59,305 nucleotides of DNA, filler included, from Sphacelaria rigidula (GCA_964200075.2; 5 parts of 5 records of this genome joined end to end with filler, not necessarily neighbours in it), one strand, 5' to 3'; counted from the first letter of the whole stretch, positions 1,748 through 52,500 are shown. The notes: generated by a model not told the origin, from the letters alone. A program made the numbers and translations.

Positions 1748-2425
1748 TATTATGACAAGGTTGTCAGCGAGGAAGGAGGACGTGGTGGTAAAACAGCGAC
1801 CCGAGCTGCTGCTACCTACCTTCTTCACTCGACCCACCGACCAGTCTGCAGGCATCAATTGGATATAAGAAGAAGAGCTCTTTCACCCATCACCTACCAC
1901 CATCGGTCTCTCCTGTCTTGAGTGTCGCGAGCCCACAGCCTTGACGTGAGTCTTTAGCTGTGCTGTACTATCCCCCTTATCCACGATTCTTATTTGTATT
2001 CAGGCTTTGGGCTGGTGATTCTTCCCATACAGCTGGTTGATTGAAAGAGAAAGGACCCTCAGTTTGATATTTCGAGCCGAACGGAGGATCAGCTGGTCAC
2101 ATTCTCATCTATCTTGGGGTGTGGCTTGCTTGTTAGTGCTTACCGTCACACTTATGAGGCTTCAGAGGTTGCTCGTTTCATTCAAGTTGTAGGGTTTTCT
2201 CTTTTGTCGGCCGCTGTTCACGCATCGGTCAAACACAAACTCACGTTTGTTTGTTTGTTTTTCAAGTCCTGTATTTTCGGCCTTTGATTTTCACTTGATA
2301 TTTGTATACACCATTTATCGGGTGATCAGCTGTTTCTTTTTTCAAAGGTAGCTGCCTCCTTTTTCACTTAGAGTTGACGACCCCTCCGACTCTGGTCTAG
2401 CTTTAGGTCTTCGATGTGTCATACA
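1748..2425 (+). repeat. Possible 5' LTR of the Gypsy element
   Basis: Ends are short inverted repeats (TATTATGACA ... TGTCATACA) upstream of the gag-like region. No 3' LTR is present for comparison and no clear PBS was found. Confidence 0.3.
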
Positions 2426-3899
2426 GTATCCACGCTGGTTTTAGGCAATCGCGACCGGACCATTAGGCGCTTGAAGTACACGTACACGCGATCTGAACTG
2501 CTGTTTCTCTTTTTCACCCACGGGTGGTTCTCGGAAAATACAGCCTCTCCCACGTTCGTTGTTCACATACGCCCTCACGGGCCCGTAGCTTTTTCAACAC
2601 CCCCCGACCACCTGCTCCGCCAGTGCCCCCGCGCACCGCTTGCCAACTCTGTATCAATCGTACCAGCCGACATGTGTCCCACCACACGCCCATTCATGCT
2701 TGCAGGTAGGGAGCACGCGGGCTATTTCAATCGCCGCCCGCTGCGCAGACGATTTTTCTCTCCCAAACATGGAACGTTGAGCTCACCATGTACACCGAAT
2801 TATATCGATGCAACATGATGGGCCAGGACTAAGAATGTTGTCTGTACACGAGCATAATTGAACACGGCGAGACACGAGGCTCATGCTACTTGTACACAAG
2901 CTCTCGACTCTGTACTTTTGTCACTTTTACACGGCACCAGTGTACACTACAGTTTGATTGTCTCCCCACCAACATAACCACTGCAGTACGTACCAACCGC
3001 CCAGAATGCCGCGTACCTCCTGCGTTGAAATATTGTTCTGAATTGAAGTACTGTCCACAGTACGGTGCCTTTTGCATTACAAGTGATCTCAGCGGACAAT
3101 ATGTTTGCGGACGGTGAGGTGCCGTGCTGTATCATGCGTTGGTACTACTCCCCTACCTAAACAAAGCCATCTATATTGCAATCTCGATATGATCGCGCAT
3201 GGCGCGGGTATAACGTTGTGTCGGGTTTTCTTCATGGGATCCGAACAAATTGACAATCGCACTGCACTGTCGACCACGCCCGCTGCACCACCACGCGAAG
3301 ATCATATGTACGGTACTATGCCACACAGTATTTTGCTGTCTGGTGCTTTGTACGCTGCTGTTTGTACTGCACTACATATTTGTATTACGGTTGCGCTTGT
3401 ACATTTCTTGACTGTGTACCTGCACGATGATACGTGATCGAACCCCCGACTCGACTATTTTCAGCGAACTATGCGGTACTGTAATAAGTATCGCCAGCTG
3501 CGCTGGTATTGCCTCTGGAAACACGGCATCCGGCAGTTGTTTTTTTTCTCAACCTCAAGATGTTCTCAAAACAGAACTGGACGGTTTAATGTTGCTATTG
3601 CACTGTTGACAGTCACACCTTTCTCTTCATGGGGTGCAGGTTCGTCAAAGGCGCTGTTGCGGTGTTGACAGTCACTGTATGTCTGATTGTGACAACGGTC
3701 GTTTTCTTCTTGTCTCTTTGCTGTTACAGTTTATCCACCACACACACAAATACTGGTTGTCGTGTGCCTTCGACATTTGTTTTTCCGTTCGTCTGCACCT
3801 GATTGAAAAGGTGTTAGACCACATGCATGTGCGGAGTGCGCGGAACTACGTGTCGATTGAGACTGTCGACAGTACCCCGCCACTCTTTTTGTTAAATTT

Positions 3900-6779: not shown

Positions 6780-7130
6780 GCTTCTTGTACGACCAAAATA
6801 GGTTTACTAGTGGAGCGCGTGCAAACTGTCATTTGATAACTCTTGCACTACCAGACTCTGGTTCACTCAAACGTTCATTACAGCCAGCTGCTGGCAACAG
6901 ATGATCAACGCGGGTGCGACGAGCATTGTCTGTCCACCGTGCGCCCTCGTGGTTTTGGTGGGTTTGGTTCCTCCACATTTCTTACGGTCAATCAATCGGT
7001 GAGACTAAGTGTACAACTCTACCAGGATGCTACTCCCACTGCTCGGTTGTCCGTATGGGCATTAATTGTGCCCGACGGCTCCATGTCTTTTTAAGTTTTG
7101 TTGGGTCGAGATAGCTGGCTTCGTTTTTCC
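6780..7130 (+). pseudogene. Decayed retroviral-type aspartic protease
   Basis: PRGFGGFG flap-like segment and C-terminal VLLGRD motif, in the RT reading frame with an in-frame TAA at 7092-7094. The catalytic DxG region is disrupted. Confidence 0.65.
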
Positions 7131-7724
7131 ACACAGACGTATACGACGGACACACCTGTCCCGAACCGTCCAGTCATAGGCAAACTGTCACTGGGTCACT
7201 TCGACACTGATTCGGGAGCTCATGCTTATGAGGATGACCCCACGCAAACAGATAATGCTTTCCGTCTGTACTATGTTGTTGAACCGGTAGTCTCGCTTTC
7301 TCGTGAACCTCAACTTATCCAAGTAAACCTCATGAGACGCAATGGATCGCCCGCCCTCACAGGACATTATTTGGTCGAATTGCTCAAACCTGACCAAGCA
7401 CAGGTTGGTCTGTTTGAACAGACCGAAGTCTTTGTCCACGAAGGTAGGCAGGTCATTTACTTATCGTCCCCTGCATGTTTCGATATACTCAACGGTCAGT
7501 TGTTGGGTCATGCTCAGGCGCCTGTCATACGAACCGCCCTGTCAGATGTGTGCCCCCCTGCGGACAATAACTCGCCGACCGACCCCCCGAAATCCACGCC
7601 CCCCCCTCCGCTACACATGCCTGATCCCATGGTGGTGACAAATCCACCAGATGCGCCTGAACATTAGCCCCCAACTGCATTACTGGATAGATTTTCCCCA
7701 GAACAACGCTCCAGTTTTCAAAAG

Positions 7725-8600
7725 TTGTGGGATGACATTCCCCCTCACTTACGGCATATTGTTTTTGATCTATCTGGCGATGGTTGGACACCCAGTGTAA
7801 TCGATAGATTGAGATCCAGCTTGATTAGATACTCTGAACGGTTTTCTACTGCACCCTTGGATTTAGGTCGATGTACGACGACACCGTTCAAGATCAAGAT
7901 TCTTGATGGCACTCCGCCTATCGCTATGCGTCCGTACCGTACGAACCCCCCCTTAGCGGATAAGATCCAGGTAATTCTCGATGGTTACTTATCCGCCGGT
8001 TTAATTCGGCACTCGACGTCTCCGTGGGCCTCGCCTTTAGTAGTCGTCCGTAAGAAAAATGGCAAAATCAGACTGACGGTCAATCATAAACGATTGAACG
8101 CTGTCACCAAAATCGCCCGGCTGCCACTTCCACGGATTGATGAAATTATTGACTCTCTTGGCGGGGGTAAGGTATTTTCGAACTTTGATATGCAGTCTGG
8201 CTATCACCAGCTCGTGGTGGATCCAAATTCCATTGAACTGACAGCGTTCTGCACGCCATCAGGCTTGTACGAGTGGCTGGTTACACTACAAGGTGCCGCC
8301 GGAGCTCCAGGTGCGTTTCAACGTGTAATGTTCCGTGTAATGGATGGATTGCCTAAATGCCATATGTACCTTGATGATGGGGTGTGCCACGACTCCACAC
8401 CGGCTGAACACGTCGAACAGTTGGCATCATTCTTTAATCGGTTTGAACAACACAACTTGAAACTCGCCTCCTCCAAATCCCCCATTGGCGCCACGAAGAT
8501 TGAGTTCTTGGGTCATTGAATCACCCCCGAAGGTCGTAGCCCAAACCTCGACAAGGTCGCCGCACTCTCCGATATGCCCATGCCACGGGACACTTCTCAA
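7725..8600 (+). pseudogene. Reverse transcriptase domain (Ty3/Gypsy pol), premature stop at 8517-8519
   Basis: Motifs SPWASPLVVVRKKNG, LPRIDEI, FDMQSGYHQ, TAFCTPSGLYEW, YLDD and FLGH. The frame continues past the TGA as ITPEGRSPNLDKV. Confidence 0.95.
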
Positions 8601-9145
8601 CTGCGTTCCTTGTTGGGAGGTCTAAGCTACTACAGACAGTACTTGCCAAACCTTGCCCAAAAGCTAAAACCCGTCACCACCCTCCTAAAAAAAGGAGTGA
8701 AATTTGTGTTCACATTGGAAATGGAAAAAACCGTCCGCCGTCTTTTTGAAACCCTTTCGCTCCCGCCAATTCTCGTCTTTCCCGACTGGTCGGCCGCGGA
8801 GCAGGGTTCCCGCCCTTTCCGACTACACACAGATTCTTCCAAAAATGGGTTTGGCTGCACATTAGAACAGGAGCAAGCCGATGCTACGGTTCGTCCCACT
8901 GTCTATCTGAGTCGCACCACTTTTCCGAATGAAAAGAATTGGTCTGTCATGGAACTAGAGATCGGCGCAGTTGTATGGAGCGTGCGACGTCTGCACCGAT
9001 CACAACTCTTTGGAAAGCCTTGCCAAAATGGCGGAACACAACGCTAGGGTCCAACGTTGGTTCGAAATCCTGTCTTCTTACAACTTTCAACTGAATTACC
9101 GCACAGGTCCCCAGAATGCAAACGCCGGCTTTCTGTCACGCTTGC
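8601..9145 (+). pseudogene. Connection and RNase H domain (Gypsy pol), frameshifted near 8990
   Basis: LRSLLGGLSYYR, LHTDSSKNGFGCTLEQ, NWSVMELEIGAVVW; then in another frame TDHNSL..RVQRW..Y.F...YRTG..NANAGFLSR. Confidence 0.92.
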
Positions 9146-9824
9146 CCACACCAGCTCAACCTATCGATGAATCCCCCATGGGACGTGTCACCGATCGCAC
9201 CGAAGACATTGTATATTTCATAAGCAGGAGTGGACATAGAGGTCTCTACACACCACTTTCACTGAGAGAAACGCCGGCTTTAGGCATGGGTGGGCTGACG
9301 ACCACAGCCCACGCATCAGTTCTAGGCAGCTTGCAACCTCAATAGTTGTTTGGAATGGACTGTATACGAATCCGGTGAGCTATACTCATTTTCGTGCAAC
9401 TGGCCAGAGCATGGTTTTCGCAGCAGGTGTAGAACCATCCTTTGCTGACTCCGTCTTACCAGTTCAAGTTCGAGATTTGATTTCGAGTAGGACTCGTGGA
9501 CGGCGAACCGCCGAAACGGCCACCAAATTAGCCGTATCTGGTCCTGACCTTCCCCTCCCTGCCCCCACCCCGGTCCCCGATAGTTTCCTTGTGCCTCCTC
9601 AACCTCCACGACACAAGGTCCCCAGAAAATCGACCCCGACCGTGCCGCCCCTGCCAACCATAACCGAAACCACGACTGTGCCCCCCTCCCTTGGTGATGA
9701 TATTGCAAACACCACCACAACACCGTCCACGCTAACCGACGCAGGAGTAGACGCTAACGTTCCGTCTGAGAGTACACCAACTGGTAGGCTCACCCTTGAT
9801 TCCGAAATCACCGCTTCGTACCAA

Positions 9825-10117
9825 CACGGGTGGCCACTGGGGTCTGTAACCTGGCCATTTTGGGACCTTATCCACCTTTGGCAAGGTCCGCGGATTGGGT
9901 AGACAACTGAAGAGCATTCGCACAGCATGGACAGGTTTGGAACAAAGCATGTTCCAGTCTACAGGGGAGTCACCCGCCTATAGACTGGGACATGTTTTGT
10001 TTCGATCCTGTCCATGCTGTACGAATGCTCCTCAGTTGTCTACCCAACCCGCGGACCTTGCCAAAGGTGGATAAGGTCCCAAAATGACCAGGTTACAGAC
10101 CCCAGTGGCCACCCGTG
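9825..10117. mobile_element. 293-bp fold-back MITE-like insertion (CAC...GTG termini, AA target-site duplication)
   Basis: Arms of ~140 bp are near-perfect reverse complements (CACGGGTGGCCACTGGGGTCTGTAACC ... GGTTACAGACCCCAGTGGCCACCCGTG). AA lies at 9823-9824 and 10118-10119. Excision restores the pol frame. Confidence 0.9.
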
Positions 10118-10479
10118 AACCCTGCCCCGAACCGACCCAACACGAAGTCGATGCTTCAACAGATGGTGTATTCAAGGAACGTTTGACTCTCTTCTCCCAC
10201 GCCGATTGGGCCCGGGAACAAGAGGCAGAACCTACTTGTAAATCAGCTATTCATTATCTATCTGAAGGTTGCCCATGTCCATTCTCAGAAACCAAATTCC
10301 TTTTGCCAGTCGGGAATCTCAAAGCGCCCACACAGGATGAAGTTACTGAACTTTTAAGGAAATGTATGCTACATACGGATGATGATGGTATAGTTCTGTT
10401 AGTTCGCCGGCCCACAGCAGCCCTCCCCAGGGGGAAGCCTACATGTCGACATGCCCGCTTGCTAGGTGATGAACCCATC

Positions 10480-11700
10480 CGCATCTATGTCCCGATGCTC
10501 CTGCGCCCATGGGTTCTACGCGAATGCCATTCACAGGCATCGACTCATTCAGGCGCCATTAGGACCTCCCAGATGTTGGAACGTTTTTATTGGTGGATTT
10601 GTATGGATCAGTGTTGTCGCTGGTGGGTGAGGCGTTGTCTTTTGTGTCAGGCGCGAAAAACTTCTCGTCAAACAGTTCGTTGGCCGATTGTTTCCATGCC
10701 ACTCCCAAACGGGTCTGGTGAAGTAGTTTCGTGGGACTATTTTGGTCCTTTGCCCCTGACGGATAGTGGGAATAAGTATATTTTGTTGTTCACGGATAGA
10801 TTTAGTCAACATGCGGTGATGCACGCTGTCCCCGCTAGTAGCTATAACGTGGAAGGTACACCCAACATTCTTGTCTACATGTACATCCCACAGTGGGGTG
10901 TGCCCAAACGCTTACTGTCTAACAACGGCCCGCATTTTTCAGGCAAACTTTCAGCCGCCGTCAGTGACCTTTGGGTGCCCATCGCATTTTTGCTAGTTCA
11001 TATCACCCTTCCACCAATGGTGGAACGCAACGAGTGAACCATACGATGGCACAGATGCTTGCTGCTGGAGCAAATGAGAGACAGATGGACTGGGACCTAC
11101 ACCTGCCCCTTGTCCAAATGAACTACAACAATTCTGTCAACGCCGCTATGGGATTGTCGCCGAATCAAATTCATATTGGACGCATGCCTAGGTTACCTCT
11201 AACGGTATTCGAACGCAAAAATACAGGCGGACATCAGAGTCTAGATCGTGATGTTGTAGAGTATCATTTATCGGTTAGCAGTCGCCTTCGTCTTGCATAT
11301 GAAGTGGTACGAGAACAGGACCAAATCAATTTGGCCAAGGTGGCCAGGGCGAACTCGATGTTGGATGATGTGGTACATAACCGCCCGGTGTGGAAGTTAA
11401 TCCAATGGGCATGGGTGTATAACGATGTGAAGACCATCAATCAAGGGGCTAGCTCGAAATCATCATCTTTGGACAAAGTGTTGAAGGCGAAACTATCCCT
11501 GAATTGGACTGGTCCCTGGGAAATTTTAGCTGTTGGTCCAAGCGCTACGCACCCGACAAGAATCCTGTGGCAGCGACACTTTTGTAACTAGATTTTCCCA
11601 CGGATGAACCTGGTTTGAAACCGAAAAATCGCGTCTCGATGCTACGATGCAAACCGTGTATCTCCCGTCATGACTCCTCTGACATGCCCAAACAACTGCC
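10480..11700 (+). pseudogene. Integrase (H2C2 zinc finger, DDE core, C-terminal region), inactivated
   Basis: CH..STHSG and CLLCQARK zinc finger, WDYFGP, TDRFS. LSNNG has N where the catalytic D is expected. YHPSTNGGTQRVN has Q where the catalytic E is expected. Frameshift near 10970; NWTGPW (GPY/F-like) motif follows. Confidence 0.92.
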
Positions 11701-15400: not shown

Positions 15401-18400
15401 TTTTCAAAGGAGCGACAGTACGATTACTTACATGTGCGCGCGCGTTGATCTACGACATCTTTACCGCTACAGCCCTACGATTACCTTACCCCTCCTGTCG
15501 CGCCCATTCCATGATCAACACTAACCTGTTACCGACGCACCGGCGAACGGAAACCGTGGGAGCAATAGCCCGGAGAGACATCGGCAAGGAGGAGGACCGG
15601 GCTTGTGCCACTCCGTCTCTGCCGACGAAATCCGATCTCCTCCCGTCGCCAGTGCAGTCGCAACGCGTAGCTTGCGGGGAGGCGGGGGCGCTTCGATCAC
15701 TACCCTGAGCGCGAATGCAAGACCGGGCGGTGAAAAGGACTCCACACGTAGCCCGCACTTATCTCCCGATCGAGCCAGGTCCAGGGCGGTGGCTGTAGTG
15801 CCGCCGGCGGCAGGGGTTCGAGGGCGACGGGAGAAAAGTGTCCCCGGTCTCGTGGTGGAGGAGACGTTTCTTGATTCGTTGAAGTTGAGCCCAGACCAGC
15901 TGTCGGACTTTTCGAATAGTGAGGGGCACTTCTTGTATTTACGGCAAAAGCCCGGGACGGATGCTACGGCGTACAATTTGGAGGTTAGTTCGCACATGGC
16001 TCAGGGGCGACGTGTTTTCCGGGAGTTGCCAAGGTGATCGCCCATATATGAAGTTAGTACTAAAATACACGGCTTGTGCGGTCGTGAGAGTATATATGTC
16101 TGACCCCAGAATTCGAGGTTTACGAAAGTTTCGAAGGGGAGGTTCCACCTAACATCAGGCTTCATGGGGTACGGAGCTGGGTGCACCTCGACAAAGTGAG
16201 CCTTGCGCTACCTTAGACAAAGCACGGGCATCGCGTATGTCCGATTTGGGGTGCTGATCACGCGAGTTGTTCGGGCTATCCCGGCGAACCCCAGCACCTA
16301 CCTCCCCGCCCCTCACTAGTGCGTTTTTCTTGTTACTAATTTCGCTCATGGAGGGCAAATTCTGTGGTGGAAGGCTTTTATCGTGCTCGAGGAAAGCACA
16401 CTTCGTGTTTTAGTGCGGTATAATCGGAAAGAATGACGTGGCCTCCTCACACACCCAGTGCGTATAATTGAACATCGTGGTGACTGCTGCCGTATTCTCG
16501 GCGACACATGAATATGGGTACTTGGCATACCTCCCAGTGGCAAAAAACAAATCACAGACGGGGCATACATTATTGCTATTTAGCTCCTAGACCCTACAAC
16601 ATTCCCGGCAACACATTACTTGACATACCTCCTCGTGGCAAAAAAGATGTCACAGACGGGGCATACATTATTACTGTTTAGCTCCAAGACCGTACAACAC
16701 GGCGTGGAGAGAAAATACAGAACTCTGAAAAAAGGTTGTTGGCGTATATGCGTTGCAGATTTCCAGCGTTGGACGATTTTGCGGCATGGACCTGTAATCG
16801 TTCTTGTGCGTGCAGGTTCCCTATTGCATGTCCCCTCTGATGTACACCATGAGCATTTCCCCTCACGTAGATCGGCCTGGTCCCCAACCGCATTTAGCAT
16901 ATCCGGGCCGTCGACAGGAGAGCGTGGTAGGCATCCTTCGCTTTGCCTCCCTGTCGCGTTGGTGTCCCTGTATATGCTGTCTACAACATTTCACCACCGC
17001 CTACGCATATTCGGCAGAGTGAGTTGTTTCCGACCGCACCTGAATTTTCGTCTAGCCTCCCCTCCCCCCCTCGCTCCGAAACTGCATATCCTGTGTACAC
17101 CCCCGTCGCCGGACTCACCCTAACGAAGGTGACTAGCAGCTTCGACAGGCAGGGACCGCCACCAGGGGCTCAAGTCCAGACAGAGAGTAAGGGACAGTCG
17201 CCACGGAGAGGAGGGGCCGCGGCCGGCGGCGGCGGGGGCGGGGGTAAAGGTCGCCCTCCGGCGCAGGATTACTACACCCTCAGTCGCGCTGGGATTACGC
17301 ACTTGAAGGACTCGTCTAGCGACTTCACCGCTTTGGATCGATGGGAGCGAGAGTACGCATCATTCCATCACATTAGAAGGTGGATGGATTCTGCTGGTTG
17401 ACATGGTTGGCATGAAGGTGTTGTCGCGGGCATGGGTGCGGCGTTACCGTTCGGGCCGGAAAAGCCATGAAAGGGCGTGTTGGGTCACCGCAACTGTTGA
17501 TGAAGCGAAACACAGGATACCGGAACAGGGTTTTGCGGGCGATCCTTTGCTGCAATCCGCACGAGAGCTTGAGCTTCCGTACAAATCCTGTAACCGCCTC
17601 TTACCCGGAGCTTTTTGCGAAGACATCCATCGAGCCTGCCACCCCGGAACCACTTCACAAGTCTGGTTATGCAGTTTGGTTCTCCCCGAAGGAGCTACAT
17701 TGAAAATGTCTACTGTACAGCTGAATTAAAATTCCCAAAATGCTATCGGAAATGTGTCTCACCGGTCATGGTGCCCCACTTCAGTCAACCAGCGTGATGA
17801 AAAATGCAGAGAGCAAAAGTGGACGCAATGTTTCCCCCCCCCATCAAGCAGCTCCAGTGAGTTTTTTCCCACACACAACACGATGGCCTTTTTCACGTGC
17901 GCAAAACACGCAGAATCCCATTCTTCGAGCAATATCGGCGTTGGAAGAGCTTCACTGTCTGGAAGAGAGCAGTCAAGGCGTTCAAGTTTACGGAAGCATC
18001 GGCAGCTCTCAGGACGGGACTATTCTCGTTTGTCACCCCGCTCCGCCTAGCGATCGCGGAGATTCGCAGACAGTGCGTCGAGGTCGAAACGCGTCGATTA
18101 TTTGCTGTCGGACGCGGGGAGACCATCACTCTCCAAGCTTTCCTTGAGCGACAACGCACGACCCAACAGGATGTAGCTCAGGTATGCGGAAGTCCTGTGG
18201 ACAAATAGCCGTACAGGGGGGAAACGGGGTGGACGATGTGTCTAGAGCGATCGATACCCCCCCCCCTCCCCCCCCCCTCCGAAAAAAAGAAGAGATTGGA
18301 GGATCATCGGACATTTTTTACTTGCTGTAGATAATCCGAAAATATCATCAAAATGGTGAAAGCTCCGACACCTGCATCTTGACCCACATTGCGCAACAAA

Positions 18401-22029: not shown

Positions 22030-23665
22030 GTGACTTTCACTCAGAAGCGCTTTCGTTTGTCGACGGCTATTCCATCGAGATTCAGGATTTGTCATAAAAC
22101 TATGCTGCCACGGGAGACTGACCCCCGAAAGGGCTGTATCCGTGCCTGGTTGTCGAGCCTGCCTTCGTCAGCATAGTTTTAAGTCCACTCACGCCGCTTG
22201 CTACAGGGAGTGGACCTCTCTCGAGAATTAAATCATCAAGCACGATGGAAACAGGCGTGCGAGACATGGTGTGTGAGATCCGAACCTAAAACATGAAACT
22301 TGTCCAAGCGTTCATGTGTGAGCAGCTTGTACCTTACAATGCGGACCACACCAGGCGTGTCAAATCGTCCACTCACTCCCTGTGCCACGATATTTTGGTC
22401 CTCGGAGGATGACTCGTCAGGGTAGGCAAAGTCTTGGCACCCTGTCTCCCACCCACCCCCATCTAAATCCACATCCATGCCCACAAACACAGGTCCATGC
22501 TACATGTTTCTTCCGTAGTGCGTCAAGAACGGAAAATGGACAGAATCAACATTTATTTTCTTGTTCATTTATTTTTTATTCATCACGATCAACATTATTT
22601 TCGCTGCTTGATTCCACCGCCTCGTGCTAAAGCGGCACAATATTTTGAGAGGGCCCCGTGCACGCACCAAGTCGCTAGAATGTTGCCTGATAGTCCCACA
22701 GAGTTTGGAGGATGGCCCTTATAGGGGTAGATGACCCGTTCGTACCATCGAGTTTCTCGCGAGTCTTACTTTTTCGTCCGTGAGGATTTGTCTCAGGTCG
22801 TGTCTTCGCACATTAGGTTTCGATCGAAAATGTGCGGTGGAGACAAAAAAAATCCCGATCTGATACGTCGTAAATTCAACCATCGCCGAAAATTGTGAAG
22901 ATGGTTAAAATCACGGTCTATCAGATCGGGATTTATGTCTTCCACCGCACAGTTTCGATCGAAACCTACTGTGCTGAGACACGGCCTCATCTGTATTTTT
23001 GGGCAGCAAGCAAGTGCGGCGGAAACTCCCAATTTCGACAGGTCCGCATCATTTGTGGTCCTCGTTTTTTCACTATGCTCTCCGAGATCCTTCACTTGCT
23101 ACCGATAGGGGCAAAATCGAAAAGTTAACTTTTTTTGCAGCGAAAATACAGCGCGAAACATTTGTATACCGATCAGGAAATAGGGTGAACGTTTGTGATG
23201 TGCCGCGGTTGGTAACGCGTGCTTCACCTCTCTGCGCGCATGCCTCGACACCAACAGGTACCCACGTTCGGTGCTTGACACCTTCAGACGTAACCAGAGT
23301 CCACAGCAGTACGATATTGGGGGAGTAGCGGCCATGTGCACCGATGCTTACTACAGCTGTTGAGAAAACGTAGCATTGTTGGAGTAGCGTCTTGGTCCGA
23401 AAACCGACAACGCTTCTTCAGTTTGTAGGCAATTGACACAGGGCGAACCGCATGGTCCATGAGTTGATTGAAAACTCTGGCTCGGGTTATGGGGCGCCAT
23501 ATTGGGCGCAGAATATTTCGTGCTGGCGTGTGAACAGTTGTGAGGCGGGGGATGCCATATACCGTTGATTAATAACGCCCCCTCCCCCCCCCCCCCCCCC
23601 CCCCCCCACCCCCCCCAACCCCTCTCTCCCCCACCGCATGCGGAGCGCACGTGGAAAAAACAAGG

Positions 23666-23765
23666 NNNNNNNNNNNNNNNNNNNNNNNNNNNNNNNNNNN
23701 NNNNNNNNNTTAATTAATTAANNNNNNNNNNNNNNNNNNNNNNNNNNNNNNNNNNNNNNNNNNNN
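23666..23765. other. Artificial contig-joining spacer
   Basis: Same 100-bp N/TTAATTAATTAA/N linker. Confidence 0.98.
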
Positions 23766-23787
23766 GGTGATGACGATGATAATGATA

Positions 23788-23852
<65 letters not shown>

Positions 23853-23975
23853 GAAGATGATGGTGATGATGATAATGATGATGAAGAAGATGATGATGAT
23901 GATGATGGTGGTAATGATGAAAACAAGAACGAGAACGAGGACGAGAACGAGAACAGCATGGTACTTCTACCACTA

Positions 23976-24007
<32 letters not shown>

Positions 24008-24040
24008 GCTACTACTACTACTACTGCTACTACTACTATA
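23766..24040. repeat. Compound microsatellite (GAT)n-(GAGAAC)n-(TAC)n
   Basis: Directly visible at the start of contig 3. Confidence 0.95.
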
Positions 24041-24763: not shown

Positions 24764-27700
24764 CTTTTCGACAGCATCTTGCTGCAGTGCCAGGGCCTTT
24801 GCCTTTCGCCTAAGCTCGTTGATTTCTCGGGTCAAGACTACGTTTTCTCTGTTAAGCCTCGACCTGTCCTGGTGGAACATTCGCATGTCCTGCACATATT
24901 GAGCGAGAGCGACAACGATAACGAGAACGAAGCACACACACACACACATATATAATTTAGGGAAAGACGATTCACCGCGTAACTTGGCATTTAGATCGCA
25001 GCCATATCGTAGCCCCTCCCCAGAGGTTAACCTCGCACATCATCTCACCATACATAGCTTATGTGGCCTTCGCGGTTTGGAATCCAGACTGACAGACGGT
25101 AGGAGACTCGAGGGTTTTAATTCTTCTTTCAGTGACGAAAACAATCGCTGAGTTTGTTTGTCCAATAGTAATGAGAACCTCTTTCTTTATCGAGGCGGGA
25201 TATGGGCTTCAGTCTTTGTGAGTGTCTCCGGTAAAACACGTGGCGACGGCCACGCATACGTCGAGGTGCGCGGCATGGGTACGATAAACACTTGCGAAGT
25301 CACTCTCGATCGTGCAGTCTGGGGCATGTGACACGCTTGATATCGCCGTTGAATGTGCGTAGCAATGAACGCTGTAGATACGTTCACGTGTAGTTACTCC
25401 AGACAGGAAGGCAAGCGGGTGGGCAATCGCCGTGATTAAAATGATCGCGTGCCCTTTGACTCGAGAGCAGCATGATCTTTGCACGTTTGACGAACCGTGA
25501 TAGTCAAATAAAACCGACGTGTACGGCGGTGAAACGACAACTGTAATTGTGATTGTACATCATGCCATCACACGATGAAGACCACCCACTGAAGGCTTGG
25601 TGGACGAATCGTCGCTTGCTTGCCTTATCGATGCTGCCCTTCAGGGCCTGGACGTTTCTCTCAAGGTGTTCCCGCTGGCGGTTGTACTCTCGTTGCACAT
25701 CGCCGTCTTCGCCCCCGCTAACCGCCGGTCCGAGTTTGTCCTGAACCGCAATGGCGGTGCAGAGGAAAATGCGCTCATGTTTTGAATGCCTCTTAGCTAC
25801 TGAACCGTTCCCACAGCCTCCTCGAGAAACCGGAGTAGTAGATCACGGGGAGTTGGGCGTCTACCAAATCAGAACGTTTCCCCTCAGGTATCCGTGGTCA
25901 ACCTACCACCCATCGCCACCCCTTGCAAAATACCGGTCGGTGGCACCTCTCTCTTGCTCTTTCCTCGGTGAGTGACCTCGTAGTCACCACCCTTCTGTAC
26001 TATCGCTTTGCACTATGGGCCTCATCTTTTTCGCGAGCTTATGAAACCGTTTTACAGCCGCGCCCCGATGGTATGATATCTGATGGTACAACTGACACCA
26101 TTAGACAGGAATAGACAAACGCTGGTTTGATTTCCACTATTATAGATGCGTCTAGTTCGTTTTGTTATCTCCGGAATATCTGGTTTCCGTCATTGAAATA
26201 TGTGGACATGTGCAGCACCAAGAGTTTGTTGGACTCAGGCGGTATGGATGTGAGACGACAGTCGACGTGGTATGGGTGTGCTGATAATCATGATCCAATC
26301 CGCATTACCAAAGTGCAAGGTGTGCACCGGAGGAGAGATCGGTCGATCCCTTGAGACACACCACGGACTCGTCTCGAGGAGGAGGGGGGAAGGGTTAAAA
26401 GCGAGGAACACACATACGCACATGATAGTGGGAAGTATGCTCAGCCGTCACAATCAGCCTGATCACACATTTTTCTTGGACGAACGCCGTGAGGAAAGTG
26501 ATTTTTGACACGTCACGATGTTTATCCCCCCCTGTCCCCCTCCTACAACAAATGAGTACGCCCCCCCTCTGCCCCCCTCATGCTCCGCCTCGAAAGGAGT
26601 GCGTGGTCGATGGTCAAACGACTAAGGCAAGTAACAATTGAATACGCCCCCCCCCCGCTGCCCCCCTCCCTCCTAACGCTACGTGCCCCGAAACATGAAG
26701 CCAACACTTCACCGAAAACGCTACACATATAGCTATCCACCACTTCACGCGGACGCTGGCCTAGGTCAGGGTGTATCACACCCTGGACAATACAAAATGT
26801 TTCCAGTATATATTAGTCGATCATTTTGGAATTTTGCGATATATTGCCGGCGTAATATATATTGGTACCCTTGGACTGCAAACGTATTGCGCGCCCAGTA
26901 TATATTGATGTCGTGGGACTGCATACATATTACCCGTCCAATATATATATTGGTACCGTGAGGTTGAACACATATTGTCCCATCAATATATATTGGGGCA
27001 GCGTGCGCGACAGCATACTGGGCGACCAATATATATTAGGGTCGCATTGATGAAAATATATTGACCGGTCAATATCTATTGGGTCTGCGTGGGTGCCAAT
27101 GAATTGGCCGGTCAACATATACTGGATATTATAATTATGGTGTACGCTTCAAGAAGGGTCCAGACGCGATGGATGCCGGAGCCCGTCCAAGTTGGGAAAA
27201 GCTTTAGAGGGAGCCACAAAAGTTCGCGTGCATTACTACGGAGAGTTGTCGAATGCGCTGACACACACATATATATATACTCCGGTCAGAAAGTATAGTG
27301 ACAGAAGAGGCGACCCGGCGTATACGCCTTCTGATACCTATCTGACCAACGGGGCGAGACCGCTCATCCCTTCACGGCATGTATTTAATATATCTTGGCT
27401 AAACATCACGATGGCAGAAAACGCGGGTCGATATGCACCTTTTGGTACTCCCGTGGTCACCGGGGCTGTGTTGCTTATACCCTGGACGATACAAATGTTC
27501 CAATATGATACCAACACTTTGTGTTGTAGCCAGCTCAAATATTGTCCTTTCAATATATATTGTGTTGAACTGTCCTCGGAGACATTGAAACAACAACATA
27601 TACCGCTCCTGTCATGATCATGAAGTAATGTATGACAATATATATTGGACATGCATTTGCTCCGGGAATAACAAATTCAATATATATATTGTGCATGCCG

Positions 27701-30700
27701 GCCGTGTATGTATTGAAGTGTCAATGTATATATTGAGTCAAAGCGATACGTAGCATATCGTTACCATAATATATATTGAACGCAAACCATGCAAAAGTAT
27801 TGTTTTTTCCAATATATATTGCGCACGCTCATCGCATAGCTATTTTGCAGCCAATATATATTGAACACGCGTGCGAAGGAATATATTGAGCGTTTTCGGC
27901 ATGTGGTGATGCATCTTTCAATGGCCCGCGAACATAGAGTTGCCCACCATACGAATTCCAATACACTTTCCAATCTGCACGTTGAAAATCAGAATATATT
28001 GCTACACCAATATGTATTGTGACCGTCGGTTCCCTCGAGTACCGTCCGCCCAATATATATTGGACGCATTGACGCACGACATATTGGGGCGGCAATATAT
28101 ATTGACGTTTCGGGTGTTGAGTATATTGAATAATCAATATATATATATATATTGACCTCGTGTGGCAGCCAATATATTACTCGACAAATGTATATTGGTG
28201 CCTTCTCGCACCAACATATTACTCGACCAATATATATTGAGGCGGCGCGTGTCGCGATATATTGTTCGGTCGATATATATTGCATGTCGCGGGCCTTGAC
28301 ATATTGATGGCACAATATATATTGACCACCCGACGCGTCGACATATTGAGCGGGCAATATATATTACATATTGTTTTGTCCAGGGTGTGGGGTGTATCAA
28401 ACTCGTAACTTGCATACGACGCCGTCGCCCTAAAATGCTACTCCTGGGTAATAAGATGCCGATGCCTGAAGCAAAATCTACGATATCGGAAATCGTTGTG
28501 TACTATTATATACTGTTCAGCATCCCCCTTGAAGACCCCGAAGCCCCATCGTCCGGAGAGGCTTTGTACACACCGTAGCCTGTCGTGCTGCAAAGCATAT
28601 CTCTGCTGGGCATCATGCGGCGGAAGAGCCGAGGCACAATAAGATGGGCGACATTTGCTCGCCGATTCTGCTTCTTTCGGTTTGCATCTGCTTTTATATC
28701 TACCCATACCGGCATCACTATATTCGCCTTCTGCCATGTTTACCAGTGTTCGAAATGATCTTAAATCTTTTCTTACGATCTACCCATATCGATATTCAGA
28801 GCGCTACCTATTCAATTCAATGTTTTGTCGATTAACTGCACCGCTTTCCAGCTTAGCCCACCCTACCACCCGACAAGCATATCCCGGGGATGGTCAAGGA
28901 GGCGGCAACGAGGAGAGACAGTTTTCACCGGGACCCTCGTCGACGCCTTCCATCGCGCTCGTGTCGTCACTCAGTTGTACCAAAAATGTTTAGTTCTTCA
29001 TTAAGTTCGTTGGTTGTGCATGAATGGTCAAGTGCTCTGCCTCGTCGCACACACCTGGTTGTACAGTCTATACAGGGAAACTACCGCCTTCTTGAGAGCA
29101 CGGTCGTCGTCCGATGCGATGTTCTGCGCAAGTGCGAAGGTAACGTACACGACAGGGTTAAAGCGGCTATGGGTGGGAGTTAGATCATTTGGCAATTACA
29201 TTTTTGCTACGACGGTCAGCATATATAGACATGCACTTATATATAGGGGGAGATAGAAGGGTTAAACTCAGAGTGACTTTCACATTGCTCCTCGTCAGTG
29301 CATTATCGCTTATTTTTGTTTCTTTTAGTATTTGTCCTTGTTTCCCACTCACGTTTCCCTCGTCGTGACCGTGGTCGTGTCGTCTTTTCTTGATTGCGTC
29401 TATCCCGCGACCTTTAAACGATCCCCGATAGATTTTCGATTGCGCGAGTCATTGGCAGCACGTGTTGTTCATTTTTGTCGTTATACTCTAGACCTAACTG
29501 ACTCGAAACCAGGCCCGGGCCTCAAGGTGTTGTAATAACCAAGGTATTGTATTAACCTACCTCTTCCTCGGTACTTGGTTTGCAATGAAATATGTTTAGC
29601 AGCGCACGTAGTCAAACACGCTCTACGCCCAAACTGTGTGGTCGATGGATGAAATACGACGGCACTGTCCCGTGAGGGAAAAATCAAGACTATTTAACTA
29701 CAACGGAGGCTCCTATATACCAACAAGAACAAAACAGCGTATCATATCCAGTCACGCTGGAACGATGAACATATACATGCGTTCTCTGACTCCCATCGCT
29801 CGTCAACTTCTTGACCTCTTCTTTGCGTTGATATTCGTGTGGCATGCATTCTCGAGTGAAAACGAAATGGGTGCAGAGTAAAGCGTGTTGACATCGATAT
29901 CGATGTACCTGAACTGCCGCCCGCAGATCGGAATGGAATTGATCATTAAACTGAATGCCCTCTTCCAGCCTCTTGCTTTGCGCCAGGAGATCCTTTTGCA
30001 TACCGTCCACTTTCAGTCTCAGCTCTCCGATCATCAAGTCTAGCGCCGAGTTACTCTTGTGATACTGCAAGTAAGATCAGCAGCAGCAGCAGCAGCAGTC
30101 TGCCTCGCTGAAACAGTGTGCATGAAAGCCATTGATACCCCCACGTTGTTACATCTAATACCCGCCGCGTACTACACACTGGTAGTAACAGTGTTTTCGC
30201 GAGATTGAGAGTAGAGGGCTGATCGAGAGTGGGTTTTATCATTCGCTTTACAACTTGACCAACTTTTTATTCTTTGTGTGCTTTTATTTGCCTGTAACAC
30301 TGGCGTGTGCTTCCAGCTACACGTCGATATCCTACTCGGGGGCACCAATGGCTTCAGTCGCAAGCTACTACAGAAAGCGTATCGGGTCTCGTGGAGGGGC
30401 GTTTCGTAACCGAAACTATTCGTTCATTAACTGACCGCTTTTCGCACTCAATCGTATCCTCTCCTCTCCACGTCACGACAGCATTGTTCAGAACAGATAC
30501 TGCAGTTGTTAGACCGGTTGTTGAGTTTTGAGGGTGTGATTTCTTTCACGTACGTCACCGGAGAAAACGCCTACTGGTTTGCATATACCCAATCGACAAC
30601 GACACATCTGATGAGCTACCATGTTTTTGCAAAATATGAAAACGGATATCATTCGGGTACCGTCTGAACGTACTTCAATTGCAATGCTCTGTGATAGCGG

Positions 30701-33560: not shown

Positions 33561-34474
33561 CTGTGACGGACAGAATATGACAAATGCGTCGTGATTGAGG
33601 GTAACAGCAAGGACCATCGACATGTCTAAATGAAATCCAAAACATGATCTAGCAGTATCACATAACACAACACGTGAACAGTAAAGGGTGTGGGGATCGG
33701 GGCTGTTGTTGTCATCGCGAAACACTTGAGCGGATGCCCAATGCTGGACGATAGGTTGTTGCCGTAAGGGAAACGCTTGTGAAGGATCTGAGCAAACCAC
33801 CCCTTTGTTTGTAGAACCAGGTGCGTGGACTAAGATAACACGCTATTATAGATAGCAATGATACGCCGAGGTATAAAAATGTGCGTAAAAGGTTAACTCA
33901 ATTCCTTGTATTAACACATGAGGAGAGCTCTAGACAGGAGGGTCACTCACGGCGAGTGAGGAGCGCGGTACAGACCAGCTGACTGTACTCCTCGCTACAT
34001 AATCATGCCCCACACAACGTTCTGACTACAGTACCCGTAGATCATAATTTCGGACCGATTATCCCAAACATCCTTCCCTTGCGCATCGTGCCATGCTTTT
34101 TTGCTTGACCAAAAATAGTAATAGTCGATGAAAGTCGACGGGTTACGGGAGCGGTGACAGTCGTGATCCAACGCTTGATATTGAATTGCAAGACCCTTGA
34201 GAATACAAACCCGTTTCGAGAAAGAAGGGTGTGGTGGTGGTGGTGGTGGTAGGTTAATGACGTCAGACGTAAGAAAAATATCCTAAAACAGAAGAGGAAC
34301 GACGGACGGAAACAGAGCAGAATTCATGCGTATCATCTACAGCTTGTTCTAGGGCACAGGCTTGAGAAACATTCAATCGAAAGCGTTTCGTAGTGACCAA
34401 TGCAGGCCATGAGTGACACTGTTCATCGCCGATGCGGAGTATTCCACCCCCCCCCCCCGCCCCCTTCCCCTCCT

Positions 34475-35465
34475 AACCGTTTCAACAACCCAGGAAATTC
34501 TAGAGGGATAACGCTTTTCAGCACCGTAGGGGAAACATTCTGCAAGATTCTGGACGATAAAGCGGGAGCGATGCTAAAGAAGGATGCAAGAACCGGCGAG
34601 GGACAAGCAGGGTTTATACCGTAGCTAGCTGCGTAGATCATATGTACACATTAGGTAAGATCATTCAAGCTAGTAAAGACGTTGGGCTAACAACATACTG
34701 CTTCTTTCTGGACGTACAAAACGTGGATGAAACAGTATGGAGAAATGGGTTGTGGGAAAAAATGCAGGAAACTGGAATCAGAAAAAAGATATAGAGAATG
34801 GTGAAAAATATGGCAGAATGGGCGGGAAGTGCTATGGTGCTACTGTAGAAGGGGAAATAGTAAAATTATTTAATATTTTGCAAGGAGTTGCGCACGGATG
34901 TGTGTTATCATCGCTTTTATTCAAAATATCCATTTTTGACCTGATAATAGCAGAAGGCGTAGACTAAGAAGGAGTTAAGGCGGGAGAAGAGGCGCTGTCG
35001 GGATTGACGTTCGCGGATGTTTTGTGTGAATAGCAGAAACCAGAAGGATGGCAGAAACAAGTAGAGAGTGACAACGAACGTGAGCAAACACGCTGGTACT
35101 TGTATGCAACGACGCGAAGGAGAAGCCGATAGGATTTAGGACGGAGGTGGAGAGAGAAGGGATTGCCGATCGTACACCAGTCAATATTTCTTGGTATAGA
35201 GATGCCAAACAACTCGTCTTGGGATGCACACATAGAGAGGGATAAGGCACAGGTAGGCAAGATGGACGTGATTTTGCGTGACTCGCACCTAGATACTAGG
35301 ATTAAGAGGCTAATTCCCATGGATGTGCTTGTACCGAAGCTAGATTATGCAGGAGAAGCACGGGAAGAGAATAAGAAGTTGGCGAAACAGGTAGAGACAG
35401 TGCAGATGGCATCAGCTAAGGAAATGCTGGGATGCTCAAAAGAGACGGGTGATGTGTCCGCTTAA
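34475..35465 (+). mobile_element. Decayed non-LTR retrotransposon (LINE) reverse transcriptase fragment
   Basis: Frameshifted LINE RT motifs in order: PGNSRGITLFSTVG.TF.KIL, EGQAGF, CFFLDV, QGVAHGCVLSSLLF, FAD, IFLG, PKLDYAGE. Confidence 0.85.
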
Positions 35466-35646: not shown

Positions 35647-36164
35647 GGTGCTGCTTGGGGTGTGCGCTAAGGGGGCGAGGGGTGGGGGGGAGCGGGGCTG
35701 GGTGGTCGGGGGGGGGGGGGGGGGGGGGGGGGGGGGCGGGGTGTACTCATGATCATGCATGCCATAGTCATCAGACCATTGACCTCGCACCCCTGCAAAG
35801 CAGGAACGGAGTACTCCGGGTTTTCCCCGGGCCGGAGGGAGGGGGGGGGGGGATTATAGGTGTTGATCTGCGGTATGTCGTGGTTGCGTTTGTCTGCTTT
35901 GTGCGCGTTTGTGTCGGTCATTTGTGTGTCGTTTCGCGAGGATCCGCGGGCGTTATGGGTATGTCGTTTGCTGAAGCGCCGTTATAATAGTGTGTGGGTG
36001 GACAGGGAATATGTGAGAATACTGGCGGTGAGGGTCAGCAGTACGCGTCGACATTTCGCGAGATTTGCTCCTGTTCTGAGGGCGGGATGCTATACAATTC
36101 AAAAGTCAATATATTGCTGTTTTCATCGACTCTTTGCGTCTCCGCTCTGACGGTTATAGCCGAT

Positions 36165-48927: not shown

Positions 48928-49506
48928 AATTTACCCACTACTTGACCCTTCTCTGTGTTGGTGCTGTACTGTTCTCTCTAGCCTTCTTCCTGGTCTAACG
49001 TTCTTCAGTTTCACTGCAGAAGGAGGTTTCGGATGTCAACTTCCTCGCAGAACAACAGCACTCTGCTTATATGAACGATAGTAATATCCCTGCGTTCAAT
49101 GGTGCATCTCTGCCGCACCACGGTACTATCTGTCGGTACTGTTCCGAGGTCTGTATCGATTGCCTGTACTGTTGCGTATTTGCTGTATACCGTCCACGTG
49201 GGGCTCGGTGCCCGCTCGCGTTTACATGACCAACTTTCAACGCGTGGCAGAACGACTCATAATGGACCTGCGAGGGCACACCCTTTTGATTGCTGTCACG
49301 GCACCGCAGTGCAGGGTGCTGGTCATTCACCTTGCCCTAGGTGACGGGATTGGATAAGGGCAGAGGCGGGAGGTGGGCAGCGAGTGAGATTGCTTGTGCA
49401 TCAGTGGGTAGGACGCTGTAGTGAAGAAGTACATCAGACCAGCAAAGTTTTTTAATCCGTTACAAAATAACAGTAGTGGTACAGCACTACATCACCTCGT
49501 TGCACA

Positions 49507-52500
49507 ATGGACAACGTGGAAATATCGGCCGACGTAGATAACGTTCCATCTGGTACCGCTGGCACCGATGCGGCAGCAGATACAGGAGCGTCCCCGCGTA
49601 AAGCGGACGATCTCCCTGAAGCAAACGATACCCCCGAAGCTCCTCTTCCAAAGCAAGCCGCGACTTTCACGACTTCCACCACCTCCTCAGGCACGGCGGG
49701 CACCGGTGAGATTGTCGATCATGCCGGCGGGGCGATTACGGATCAAATCACCAGCGACACCACCGAGAGAGTCTCGGCGACCGCGGCGGCGGCTGCAGCT
49801 ACGGTGCAGCAACTACCGGCGACACCGGCAGCGGTGGCGAGATCGATGGTGCCAGACAAAGAAGACGACGAGCTGGCAGAGGGTCCGCCTCGGCACGTTT
49901 CGCTGCAAAATTACGCTAGCAAAGACTCGGGGGCGGTGATGCTAGAGAGCTCGCCTGGGTCCAAAGGTATGAGTAATCTTTTGATGAACAGTCGGGACAA
50001 GTACGCGATATCCCCCTGCGAGGAGAAGCAGTGGGCGGTGTTTGGTCTTTCGGAGGATATCATGGTGCGCACGGTCAAGATCATCAGTCACGAGAAGTAC
50101 TCTTCACTTGTCAAAGATTTCCAGGTAAGTTTGTGACCCCAACTGTATTGTGCCGAACTGTGGCTGCTGCATGTGTGCATGTGTGTAGATTTTTAGTTCA
50201 AGACACCGAAAACCACACAGTACACACAGTACAGTACACGGTCCGCTTCAGACACAGCCACGAACCACCGGCCGTAACGTCCAGGTGGCTAGTCAGGGTT
50301 AGTCAGAGCGACATACGTACTTCAACACTTGAGTATCTCTGTCTTGCGACATTTGCGACTACTGATGCTGGGCGGTGGATCAGCGTAGAGTTGTGGACCC
50401 CTTCCCTCCCCCCCTCCCCCCCGCTGCCAGGGCGAAATTGATTTGGCACCGCAGGTTGATCACTGCCAGCTGCGAGAAGATAATAATTACATCATCACCC
50501 TGGTCGCTCTTGCGGGATCTATTTTAGTTTGTTTTGTTACGATTCTTCCTGCGCCATCCTCGGTCCTGCTGCAGACTGACTATACAATACGTATACCTTT
50601 CACCTCGGACGTGCTACGTGCTGTTTGTGAAGCTTTGATGGAACAATAATGTGCGTGATATCTCAATCTCTCCGAACCCGCCGCTGGCTTGCCTTTGCCG
50701 CCCCCATTCTTGCATGTACTTCCGCCTGCTTGGCTCTTCGCGTTATCTTTCGTTGGTCTCCGACCGGGCTGTCGGGCTGTCACCTCGATAAACTGTCTTG
50801 CTCCTGGGGCACAACAGGTGCTAGCGAGCCCAACATACCCAGTGAATGAATGGCTGGACCTCGGCACCTTCACGGCCAAGTTTTTACAGGGGGAACAGAC
50901 CTTTGAGGTGCCTCAACCAGCGTTTGCCAGGTGACATATTGCTGCTGTACGCGGTGTATCTTTCCGTTTCTGTACAGACGTTGCATGACGCGTCCTACAT
51001 GGAAGTAGCATGTGGTTTCGTTGACACACTGGACAGTATGAACAATAGTTACGATAGACAAGAAATTTACTGCGTAAAGTATTGGTATGTTGTATATTGG
51101 AACTATTATCGGCGTTTCGGTGTAGTCGCGGAGGTTTTGCAGAATCACACATCGCATGTAACCGGGCGATTCATGCTCGATCTAGAAAACGTTTGATGCA
51201 GTGGTGGGGGGGATACCATGTGTGTGTTGTGTGTTGTCGTCCCATTTATTCTGGGCGCCAGTCTACCCCTTTCGGGATATGTGGGCACATCAGGTATGTT
51301 GCAAAATGCATAAGCTTGTCTCAAAATGAGCGTTCGACACCCCGTCACGTCGCTTGACTTCAACGTTTTCAATATTCTCAACGGGATCCCGGGCGTACCA
51401 CCATCGACAAGGTCATGGGCGTGGTCTGAATTATTCTAGACTTCGCTGTAGAGTATTGTTATCGTGGCGTCGACACTTATTTTGTAGCGGCTCGGAAACG
51501 AACTTAGCAGCTTGTTGACTACGCCCACGAAATGCAAAGCACGCCCGACCAGCGCTACTTCCGTCGACCTCTACTCAAAACCAGGTATCTCAAGTTCAAG
51601 TTCCTCACCCACTACGGTAACGAGTTTTACTGCACGGTGAGCCAGATTAAGGTGCACGGCTCCACCATGATGGAAAGCTTCCATGACGAGTGGCAGCAGA
51701 GCTCGGCCGAGGTTCGGGAAGTTCAAGACTCGTTGATGTTGACGAAGAAGGACAACACGAAGGCTGCCGCGACCGCCAGTGGTCTTGGCACCAACGGTAA
51801 CGGCACCAAAACTACGACGTCCGCGCCGTCATTGGGCGCTGGTGGCGGTAGCGAAGGCGGAACCGCACCCACAGCAACGCCGACGCGGCATTCCACCAAG
51901 CATCAGACTCCGACGTCGACCGCCGCAACCGGCGATGGCGAGGCCGGCGTGGAGCATAGACCGCACGCTGCATCCGCCGCCACCGTACCACCGTTAGCAG
52001 AAAAGCGAACAGGCACTGCAAGCCCCGGAGGAGGTGGCGACATCGGCTCGGCGGAGTTGACGGTAGAGGATATCGTGCGCGGGGTCCCCGCGGAGATGGT
52101 GGTGCCAGCCACGACGTGCTCGGGACCGATTGGAGTGGACGGGGTGTGTCATGGAAAAATTTTGACGGATATTGCTTCCGGTGGCGGCGATGATGTTGCC
52201 GAGGGGGCGGGTGGGTTAGCGGCAGCGGCAGAATCCAAGATTTTGGCAACCGAGCTGCCAGCCATGGGGGCATCTTCCAGCAATAGACCAAACAGTGGGG
52301 GAGCGGGTGGTCGAGAAAAGGATGCAGCAGGCTCCGGGGCTGGCAGCAGTGGTACCAATACTGTAAATGGGGTAGATGGGGGTGTGCGGCGGAGCGGTGG
52401 TGCCGAACAGCGAGTAGCGATAGAAATTACCGCCGATGATATCGTGGGTGTCAGCGAGGCATCCGGTGCCGCGGGGAGGGAGGCGACGAGAGATCGAAGA

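Follow-up and report, generated by a model that had tools for sequence, protein, structure and literature searches.

A high-copy element with terminal inverted repeats in Sphacelaria rigidula: phased palindromic arrays as probable subterminal protein-binding sites

Introduction

Short motifs repeated behind the ends are described for several cut-and-paste DNA transposons, and ordered tandem arrays for some MITEs (miniature inverted-repeat transposable elements). Here we compare with these systems an element of 1613 bp, located at 26777-28389 in a stretch of 59,305 nucleotides from Sphacelaria rigidula (GCA_964200075.2; five parts of five records joined end to end with filler; the whole stretch is hereafter called the window). 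In Ac, multiple hexamers within the terminal ~200 bp bind the transposase cooperatively, the target site duplication (TSD) is 8 bp long, and non-autonomous derivatives are mobilised in trans (PMC3260210, in part). The octamer of Hermes binds several subterminal repeats via its BED domains, including a palindromic pair beside the terminal inverted repeat (TIR); the ends are asymmetric, correct phasing between the sites is described as crucial, and in cells some 220 bp of either end are required (PMC10368747, in part). The TNPA protein of En/Spm binds subterminal repeats acting as cis-determinants, whose motifs combine GC-rich and AT-rich parts (PMC2613891, in part). The element DTC84 of the clam Donax trunculus contains ordered repeat variants, a palindrome at their junction, which was proposed to be a hot spot, and a variable number of units, its putative TSD being AA (PMC3879986, in part).

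A first-pass annotation of the window, made from the sequence alone, had pointed to a palindromic repeat recurring with a period of about 43 bp inside a TIR element, and had explained it either by an extreme set of subterminal transposase sites or by an array of structured RNAs, with an architecture like that of CRISPR (clustered regularly interspaced short palindromic repeats). The analysis reported below makes it rather probable that 26777-28389 is a high-copy non-autonomous TIR cut-and-paste transposon and that its arrays are phased subterminal sites for a transposase or an accessory protein. The first of the two earlier explanations is thus the best supported one, by the TIRs, the TSD, the boundaries of the element, its copy number and the conservation of the motifs, while we infer which kind of protein binds and what the phasing does.

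Structure of the element

The element and the duplication that encloses it consist of the following parts (window coordinates).

26769..26776, no strand: left TSD copy, GGGTGTAT, identical in 8/8 positions to 28390-28397 and abutting the TIR tip
26777..26800, plus strand: left TIR, with the tip CACACCCTGGA followed by the half-site-like CAATAC
26804..27124, plus strand: subterminal array on the left, in which 8 units are phased and the two outermost ones degenerate
27125..27475, no strand: internal non-repeat segment, with no coding signal and the lowest family depth within the element
27476..27499, plus strand: internal second left-end-like copy of the TIR, diverged, which aligns with both true ends
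27539..27894, plus strand: middle array, with 8 units that are more decayed; it belongs, as subterminal array, to the internal left-end copy
27895..27995, no strand: decayed stretch between the middle and the right arrays, with no recognisable core
27996..28366, plus strand: right subterminal array of 9 units, the best preserved, in direct orientation like the other arrays
28366..28389, minus strand: right TIR, holding the half-site CATATTG and overlapping the last core by one base
28390..28397, no strand: right TSD copy, GGGTGTAT, directly outside the right TIR tip

The TIRs, already proposed in the first-pass annotation, are real: over 24 nt they are complementary in 22/24 positions (92%), perfectly so over 14 nt from each tip, and each of the two true TIRs contains a hexamer resembling the half-site of the array units. 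The chance of 8/8 identity between the TSD copies at their fixed positions is 1.5e-5. From left to right, the element is made of a left end with its array, about 350 bp of non-repeat sequence, a second left end with its array, about 100 bp of decayed sequence, and an array with the right end. Counted from the tip, the first core-like motif is reached after 23-27 nt at each of the three ends. The internal left end, in which 27478-27494 fits the TIR pattern at 2 mismatches, bounds together with the right end an inner unit of 914 bp (27476-28389). In the whole window the TIR pattern was found at the three sites of this locus and in two further matches with 3 mismatches, which were taken as chance, and comparison of the element with the window by blastn gave no match outside 26700-28450.

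As to the coding capacity, the open frames of the element had no Pfam match at E<=0.001 and a single, chance-level match at E<=5, and the longest of them (160 aa) had no relatives among 5.8 billion proteins, of which those of 88-280 residues were searched. The element therefore has the features of a non-autonomous class II transposon, i.e. TIRs, an adjoining TSD, many copies with differing flanks (see below) and no transposase found inside.

At the left boundary, the flank and the TIR tip together (26760-26790) make up a hairpin, with a perfect stem of 7 bp and a loop of 5 nt. It comes about through the likeness of the target site to the final 8 nt of the right TIR, and may reflect an insertion beside a TIR-like sequence.

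The phased arrays

Approximately 25 units of 42-45 bp each are arranged in three blocks across 26804-28366, when up to 2 substitutions are allowed and the units are read in register. A unit is composed of a 12-bp palindrome, CAATATATATTG (the core), a GC-rich spacer of 18-19 bp, the 6-bp half-site ATATTG and 6 more bp. The array is far beyond chance: with up to 1 mismatch, CAATATATATTG has 17 matches in the window, all of them inside 26853-28366, against 0.13 expected, and 17 matches were reached in 0/100 shuffles.

The distances from core to core are 49, 43, 43, 45, 43, 43 and 43 bp in the left block, 43, 42, 42, 44, 45, 43 and 42 bp in the middle one, and 43, 42, 42, 51, 42, 43, 42 and 42 bp in the right one. 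The 51-bp step of the right block is due to an (AT)n expansion within a core; such expansions are present in 4 cores (26939, 27678, 27722 and 28135), which are 14-20 bp long. In the left array the exact layout of 12-14, 19, 6 and 6 bp is repeated in six consecutive units. Each of the arrays spans about 320-375 bp, and the step of 156 bp that leads from the middle to the right array (27852 to 28008) is no multiple of 43. The TRF program calls just two short 43-bp arrays (26841-26957 and 27027-27125), and finds so little because the spacers are too diverged.

All the 22 core positions that had been read by eye in the first-pass annotation are present within 1 nt; 21/22 are found with up to 2 substitutions, and the 22nd (27722) carries an extra AT. 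Three units should be added to them, 26804 and 27594, which are both degenerate, and 28186. Every one of the six N6 loops cited there is found in our unit table, and its statement that the lengths of hairpins and spacers are kept while their sequences differ is correct, as judged from the unit layout and the pairwise identities given in the next section.

Conservation between the units

Pairwise identities were calculated from 18 canonical units, chosen for a recognisable core; the other 7/25 rows of the unit table, namely 26804, 27113, 27594, 27636, 27810 and 28008 (degenerate or incomplete) and the terminal 28355 core, were left out.

Core: mean pairwise identity 0.92; GC content 0.17
Half-site: mean pairwise identity 0.82; GC content 0.20
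Spacer, first 9 nt: identity 0.29 versus 0.26 in shuffled sequences; GC content of the whole spacer 0.58
Spacer, last 9 nt: identity 0.34 versus 0.25 in shuffled sequences; GC content of the whole spacer 0.58
6-nt loop: identity 0.29 versus 0.24 in shuffled sequences; GC content 0.56

It is the 2-3 positions adjoining the half-site that raise the identity in the spacer's last 9 nt, which indicates that the half-site is really an 8-mer, A-Y-ATATTG, equal to the right two thirds of the core. The conserved positions of a unit amount to 18-20 of 43. If the array were an ordinary decayed minisatellite, a possibility that the first-pass annotation had named as fatal to its own reading, the spacers should be no more diverged than the core; this is not so, the identity being about 30% in the former and 92% in the latter. 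The best pairs of spacers are neighbours (26853/26896 at 0.68 and 27027/27070 at 0.64), which points to an origin of the array by tandem duplication. Among the 26 differences listed inside the element between the window copy and the majority of the family, 3 fall in motif positions, and in 3/3 the family majority restores the motif.

Other copies of the family

The Logan contigs aligned to 26000-29200, at a likeness of at least 80%, come from four coded runs, X1, X3, X4 and X6; the first three runs are DNA-like, and X6 is only guessed to be RNA. Among the runs listed as containing the stretch, none is recorded as RNA, and one bears the label 'algae metagenome'. The numbers of contigs aligned were 18,710 (X1), 16,372 (X3) and 11,777 (X4), and those of X1 comprised 1,056 contigs with an identity of at least 99%, 2,805 at 95-99%, 7,237 at 90-95% and 7,612 below 90%. 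The summed depth in X1 was 36,448-243,769 in the bins of the element versus 76.9 in the right flank from 28461 on, and the ratio of element to flank was ~470-3,200 in X1, 360-2,700 in X3 and 460-2,400 in X4; since summed depth is not equal to copy number, these values serve as an order of magnitude only and correspond to a roughly thousand-fold repetition.

The boundaries of the element recur in the other copies. Loose ends of X3 contigs number 76 immediately before 26777 and 96 immediately behind 28389, the flanks beyond them being heterogeneous (agreement 0.40-0.41), and individual records of X1 and X6 begin or end at 26776/26777 and 28390. Parts of the element are also covered by X6 contigs, within records of greater length. 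The contigs of other copies also cross the internal left end (records 3, 10 and 12), so that the composite structure is a trait of the family and not a private rearrangement of the window copy.

Contigs of 260-520 bp from other copies are colinear with the window copy over 6-12 units including the spacers, mostly at 80-95% identity, and differ from it mainly by transitions. The spacers are, in other words, inherited parts of one transposon family. Some of the joints listed skip 43, 45, 43, 72, 123, 126 or 206 bp, which means that the number of units varies among the copies. As for the locus itself, the single-copy flank contigs of X1, X3 and X4 all start at 28362, 28 nt inside the element, and the insertion thus appears to be present in all three; no joint skipping the whole element was seen among the 15 of 407 joints listed.

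The flank consensus of the other copies in X3 shows on both sides an AT-rich, near-palindromic 8-mer with 7/8 positions matching, which differs from the TSD of the window copy, and the next five positions outward are inverted complements (aligned by eye, at the agreement of 0.40-0.41 mentioned above). The pattern supports staggered cutting over 8 bp and a preference for symmetric targets, although many of the copies might instead sit within a larger palindromic repeat.

Superfamily placement

A TSD of 8 bp is in keeping with hAT, P, Zisupton/KDZ and Novosib elements and with part of the Mutator and Merlin ones, and, being common to several superfamilies, is not diagnostic of hAT. The tip consensus of hAT is YARNG; the element shares with hAT the 8-bp TSD, but its tip, CACAC, does not fit this consensus. 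CACTA (En-Spm) was excluded by the tip CACAC, by the difference between the three flanking bases of the two sides (TAT versus GGG) and by the TSD of 8 bp. MITEs in the strict sense are shorter than about 800 bp, a length that the element, with its 1613 bp, exceeds. Since the superfamilies reported from Ectocarpus include hAT, KDZ and EnSpm, among others (PMC12477816, in part), several candidates exist in brown algae.

Searches for the array motif elsewhere

The 12-mer of the array was not found in the literature searched. The pattern of half-site, N6 and core had one exact match in each of 6 loci of viral contigs and 82 of prokaryote genomes, which we ascribe to chance; with 1 mismatch allowed, the core-like sites number 3 at most in any of these loci (the TIR of the element was not searched there). 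The two-core pattern retrieved 6 loci from metagenome contigs, which are AT-rich (GC content 0.32-0.39) and have other repeat periods (again, the TIR was not searched there); these were rejected as well. The metagenome contig L091 (Ga0310342_100341917) contains a near-perfect 41-bp tandem repeat with the same 12-mer in a different unit layout, and was judged unrelated. It is an AT-rich contig of 1.6 kb (1-1604) with the 41-bp tandem repeat, 96-97% identical, at both termini, where the repeats flank an 89-bp repeat and a minus-strand open reading frame of 148 aa; possibly this is a small element, either circular or bounded by repeats.

Other features of the window

The window is eukaryotic. When its 123 stop-to-stop frames with a length of 110 aa or more were compared with Pfam, the matches were limited to retroelement, SUN, Sel1 and low-complexity families. 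A Ty3/gypsy-type long terminal repeat retroelement occupies ~7095-11588 on the plus strand, with RVT_1, RNase H and the zinc-binding and core domains of integrase (~7.7-11 kb); it is probably degenerate, its domains being split over several frames. A gene of a SUN-domain (Sad1/UNC) protein with a long exon of 835 aa lies at 49477-54036 on the plus strand; its relatives include proteins from assemblies with 78%, 51% and 46% identity, and others that belong to the brown algae Ectocarpus, Laminaria digitata and Choristocarpus tenellus. These named relatives are thus all brown-algal.

Directly upstream of the element, 26535-26656 is a short repeat rich in C-runs, the summed depth of which in X1 (1.87 million in the bin 26535-26641 versus 76.9 for single-copy sequence) far exceeds that of the element. 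Many loose ends fall at its positions 26581 and 26653-26656, it is partly duplicated (26547-26579 and 26633-26668), and related pieces are located at 55856-55921 (83%), 35710-35794 and 34447-34477. Simple and tandem repeats at 23578-24038, 35671-35741 and 16519-16699 include a poly-C/CCCCCA tract, long arrays of the trinucleotides TGA and TAC, a G-rich run of 71 nt and 1.8 tandem copies of a 98-bp repeat.

Discussion

Taken as a cut-and-paste transposon with subterminal protein-binding sites, the element could have arisen and worked as follows. An old tandem duplication of a 43-bp unit in a master element would have started the arrays; drift then made the spacers nearly random, whereas the 12-bp palindrome, A-Y-ATATTG and the spacing were retained, and amplification to about a thousand copies came last. 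The window copy would have been inserted by an 8-bp staggered cut, and its three arrays would be subterminal repeat regions, one each behind the left end, the internal left-end duplicate and the right end. The palindrome and the half-site should be sites for the DNA-binding domain of the transposase, or for an accessory protein, provided by an autonomous partner elsewhere in the genome, with a dimer possibly sitting on each palindrome and a further subunit on the half-site. The period of 43 bp is about four helical turns of B-DNA, which would place the sites on the same face of the helix and let many subunits load cooperatively, thereby bringing the ends together, as in the cases of Ac, of TNPA of En/Spm and of the Hermes octamer. 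The arguments are as follows. Selection for protein binding predicts that the motifs and their spacing are kept and the rest is lost, and the position of the arrays directly behind the ends, along with the occurrence of the motif within the TIRs, points to the transposition machinery.

Several points weigh against this explanation. No transposase or autonomous partner was detected in the window (by Pfam, in the 123 frames), and all units have the direct orientation, so that the ends are no mirror images of each other (the ends of Hermes are asymmetric too). The selection of units by a recognisable core inflates the core identity, inherited copies are not independent, and conservation within this one copy therefore reflects the history of the master lineage only. 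Finally, the variation in the number of units is the behaviour of a minisatellite and needs no function.

The last point leads to the possible, though rather doubtful, explanation that the arrays are passengers, the element being a tandem-repeat-containing MITE in which the 43-bp units form an internal minisatellite, and the AT-rich palindrome at the unit junctions persists as a hot spot of slippage or recombination through which units are gained and lost. It would account for the unit-skipping joints, for the (AT)n expansions within 4 cores and for the common ancestry of the spacers in neighbouring units, and it has a precedent in the clam MITE DTC84, where a junction palindrome is accompanied by a variable number of units (PMC3879986, in part). 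However, a neutral minisatellite would decay evenly or homogenise whole units, which disagrees with a core at 92% and spacers at about 30%; the arrays stand at a fixed offset from three copies of the TIR, inside which the motif is found too; and a slippage hot spot leaves unexplained the 82% conservation of a half-site that is 18-19 bp away. The strong conservation of the motifs at the sequence level, without structural compensation, is also what could be expected if the palindrome were bound by a host protein, e.g. one of the homeodomain type recognising CAAT...ATTG, and the family spread regulatory or chromatin-organising arrays. The palindrome presumably resembles the sites of homeodomain-leucine-zipper proteins, and a highly repeated family would disperse many such sites. 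Still, we find this very unlikely, as the presence of the motif in the TIRs and of the arrays beside the ends fits a role in transposition better, and the nearest recognisable gene of the window is more than 20 kb off.

Another alternative takes up the structured RNAs and the CRISPR-like architecture named in the first-pass annotation and supposes that the units are transcribed, their hairpins are processed and the spacers carry targeting information, as in a CRISPR-like or a structured- or small-RNA array. The conserved palindromic repeat, the variable spacers of kept length and the regular period do give the locus such a look, and the right array on the plus strand folds better than its shuffles (z = -4.8). 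But the opposite strand folds equally well (z = -4.4), as is usual for palindromic repeats, and the folding energy of a single 6-bp hairpin is no better than -1.3 to -2.3 kcal/mol, a level reached by 7 to 74 of 200 shuffles. In the 132 stem positions of 22 hairpins, 22 are off the consensus (11 G-T pairs and 11 mismatches) and 0 are compensated, hence the motifs are conserved as sequence and not as structure. Adjacent spacers are paralogous, being up to 68% identical, and they are inherited colinearly across the copies of the family; spacers copied along with the element rather than acquired are fatal to the CRISPR-like version. Scanning with Rfam gave 0 families, and 0 tRNAs were found; the host is eukaryotic, and no cas-like or nuclease domain was detected by Pfam in the 123 frames, in agreement with what the first-pass annotation had said of cas and nuclease genes. 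All this makes the RNA and CRISPR-like alternative extremely unlikely.

Returning to subterminal binding sites, a bolder version of this reading is that the 43-bp register itself is under selection, with about 25 same-face sites nucleating a long cooperative protein filament along the transposon, which might pair the ends or titrate and silence the transposase. We consider it unlikely. To our knowledge, filament assembly has not been described for eukaryotic cut-and-paste elements, whose known subterminal sites are few and irregular. If true, the roughly thousand copies would amount to tens of thousands of sites, sufficient to serve the binding protein as a sink or to form a regulatory network with it.

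What makes the locus useful is, in the first place, that its inherited spacers remove the false lead of a eukaryotic CRISPR-like array. It is also a clean natural tandem array in which only the presumed protein-binding motifs survive and the spacing is kept within 1-2 bp. Should a partner transposase be found, the family would become a system for studying how the number, phasing and asymmetry of subterminal sites contribute to the recognition of ends, a question recently opened by the Hermes structures. The mobile elements of brown algae have so far been curated mainly for Ectocarpus (PMC12477816, in part); this very abundant family of DNA transposons would be undescribed in brown algae, to judge from that source, in the part that it contributes here, and from the literature search with the 12-mer, a comparison that leaves Repbase and Dfam outside.

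Comparison with known systems

With CRISPR arrays the locus has in common a partly palindromic repeat, a constant length of spacers and a regular period. It differs in that only the 12-bp core and the 6-bp half-site, and not the whole repeat, are conserved, and in that paralogous spacers are inherited with a family of about a thousand copies in a eukaryotic genome.

Tandem-repeat-containing MITEs (DTC84 and the pearl type) are, as far as the published description quoted in the Introduction goes, likewise high-copy and non-autonomous, with an ordered internal array, a junction palindrome and a variable number of units. In contrast to DTC84, 18-20 of 43 positions are conserved here, and the TSD is the 8-bp GGGTGTAT and not AA. 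The units of DTC84 are reportedly longer and similar over their whole length, and the Tetris foldback element is said to be grouped with the same MITEs. The CACTA transposon En/Spm also has repeated subterminal motifs, which there, according to the account cited above, are bound by a protein encoded by the element; it differs by the CACTA tips and a 3-bp TSD, versus the CACAC tip and the 8-bp TSD of our element.

As for the hAT transposons, Hermes shares with the element multiple short subterminal repeats and asymmetric left and right ends, in so far as they are covered by the source used here. Its motifs are of 4 bp and have no ancestry in tandem units, whereas here 25 sites belong to a decayed tandem array that takes up about two thirds of the element. 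The likeness to Ac/Ds lies, within the same limits of the source, in the 8-bp TSD, the short TIRs and the frequent repetition of a short motif within a few hundred bp of the ends; the hexamers of Ac, however, are irregularly spaced and occur in both orientations, unlike the palindrome and half-site that follow each other in a direct 43-bp register. The span of each array, about 320-375 bp, is on the scale of the subterminal regions required in cis by Ac (about 200 bp; PMC3260210, in part) and Hermes (about 220 bp; PMC10368747, in part). In general, non-autonomous DNA transposons whose subterminal repeats go back to tandem duplication are a known kind of element, and the one described here stands out mainly by the regularity of its register.

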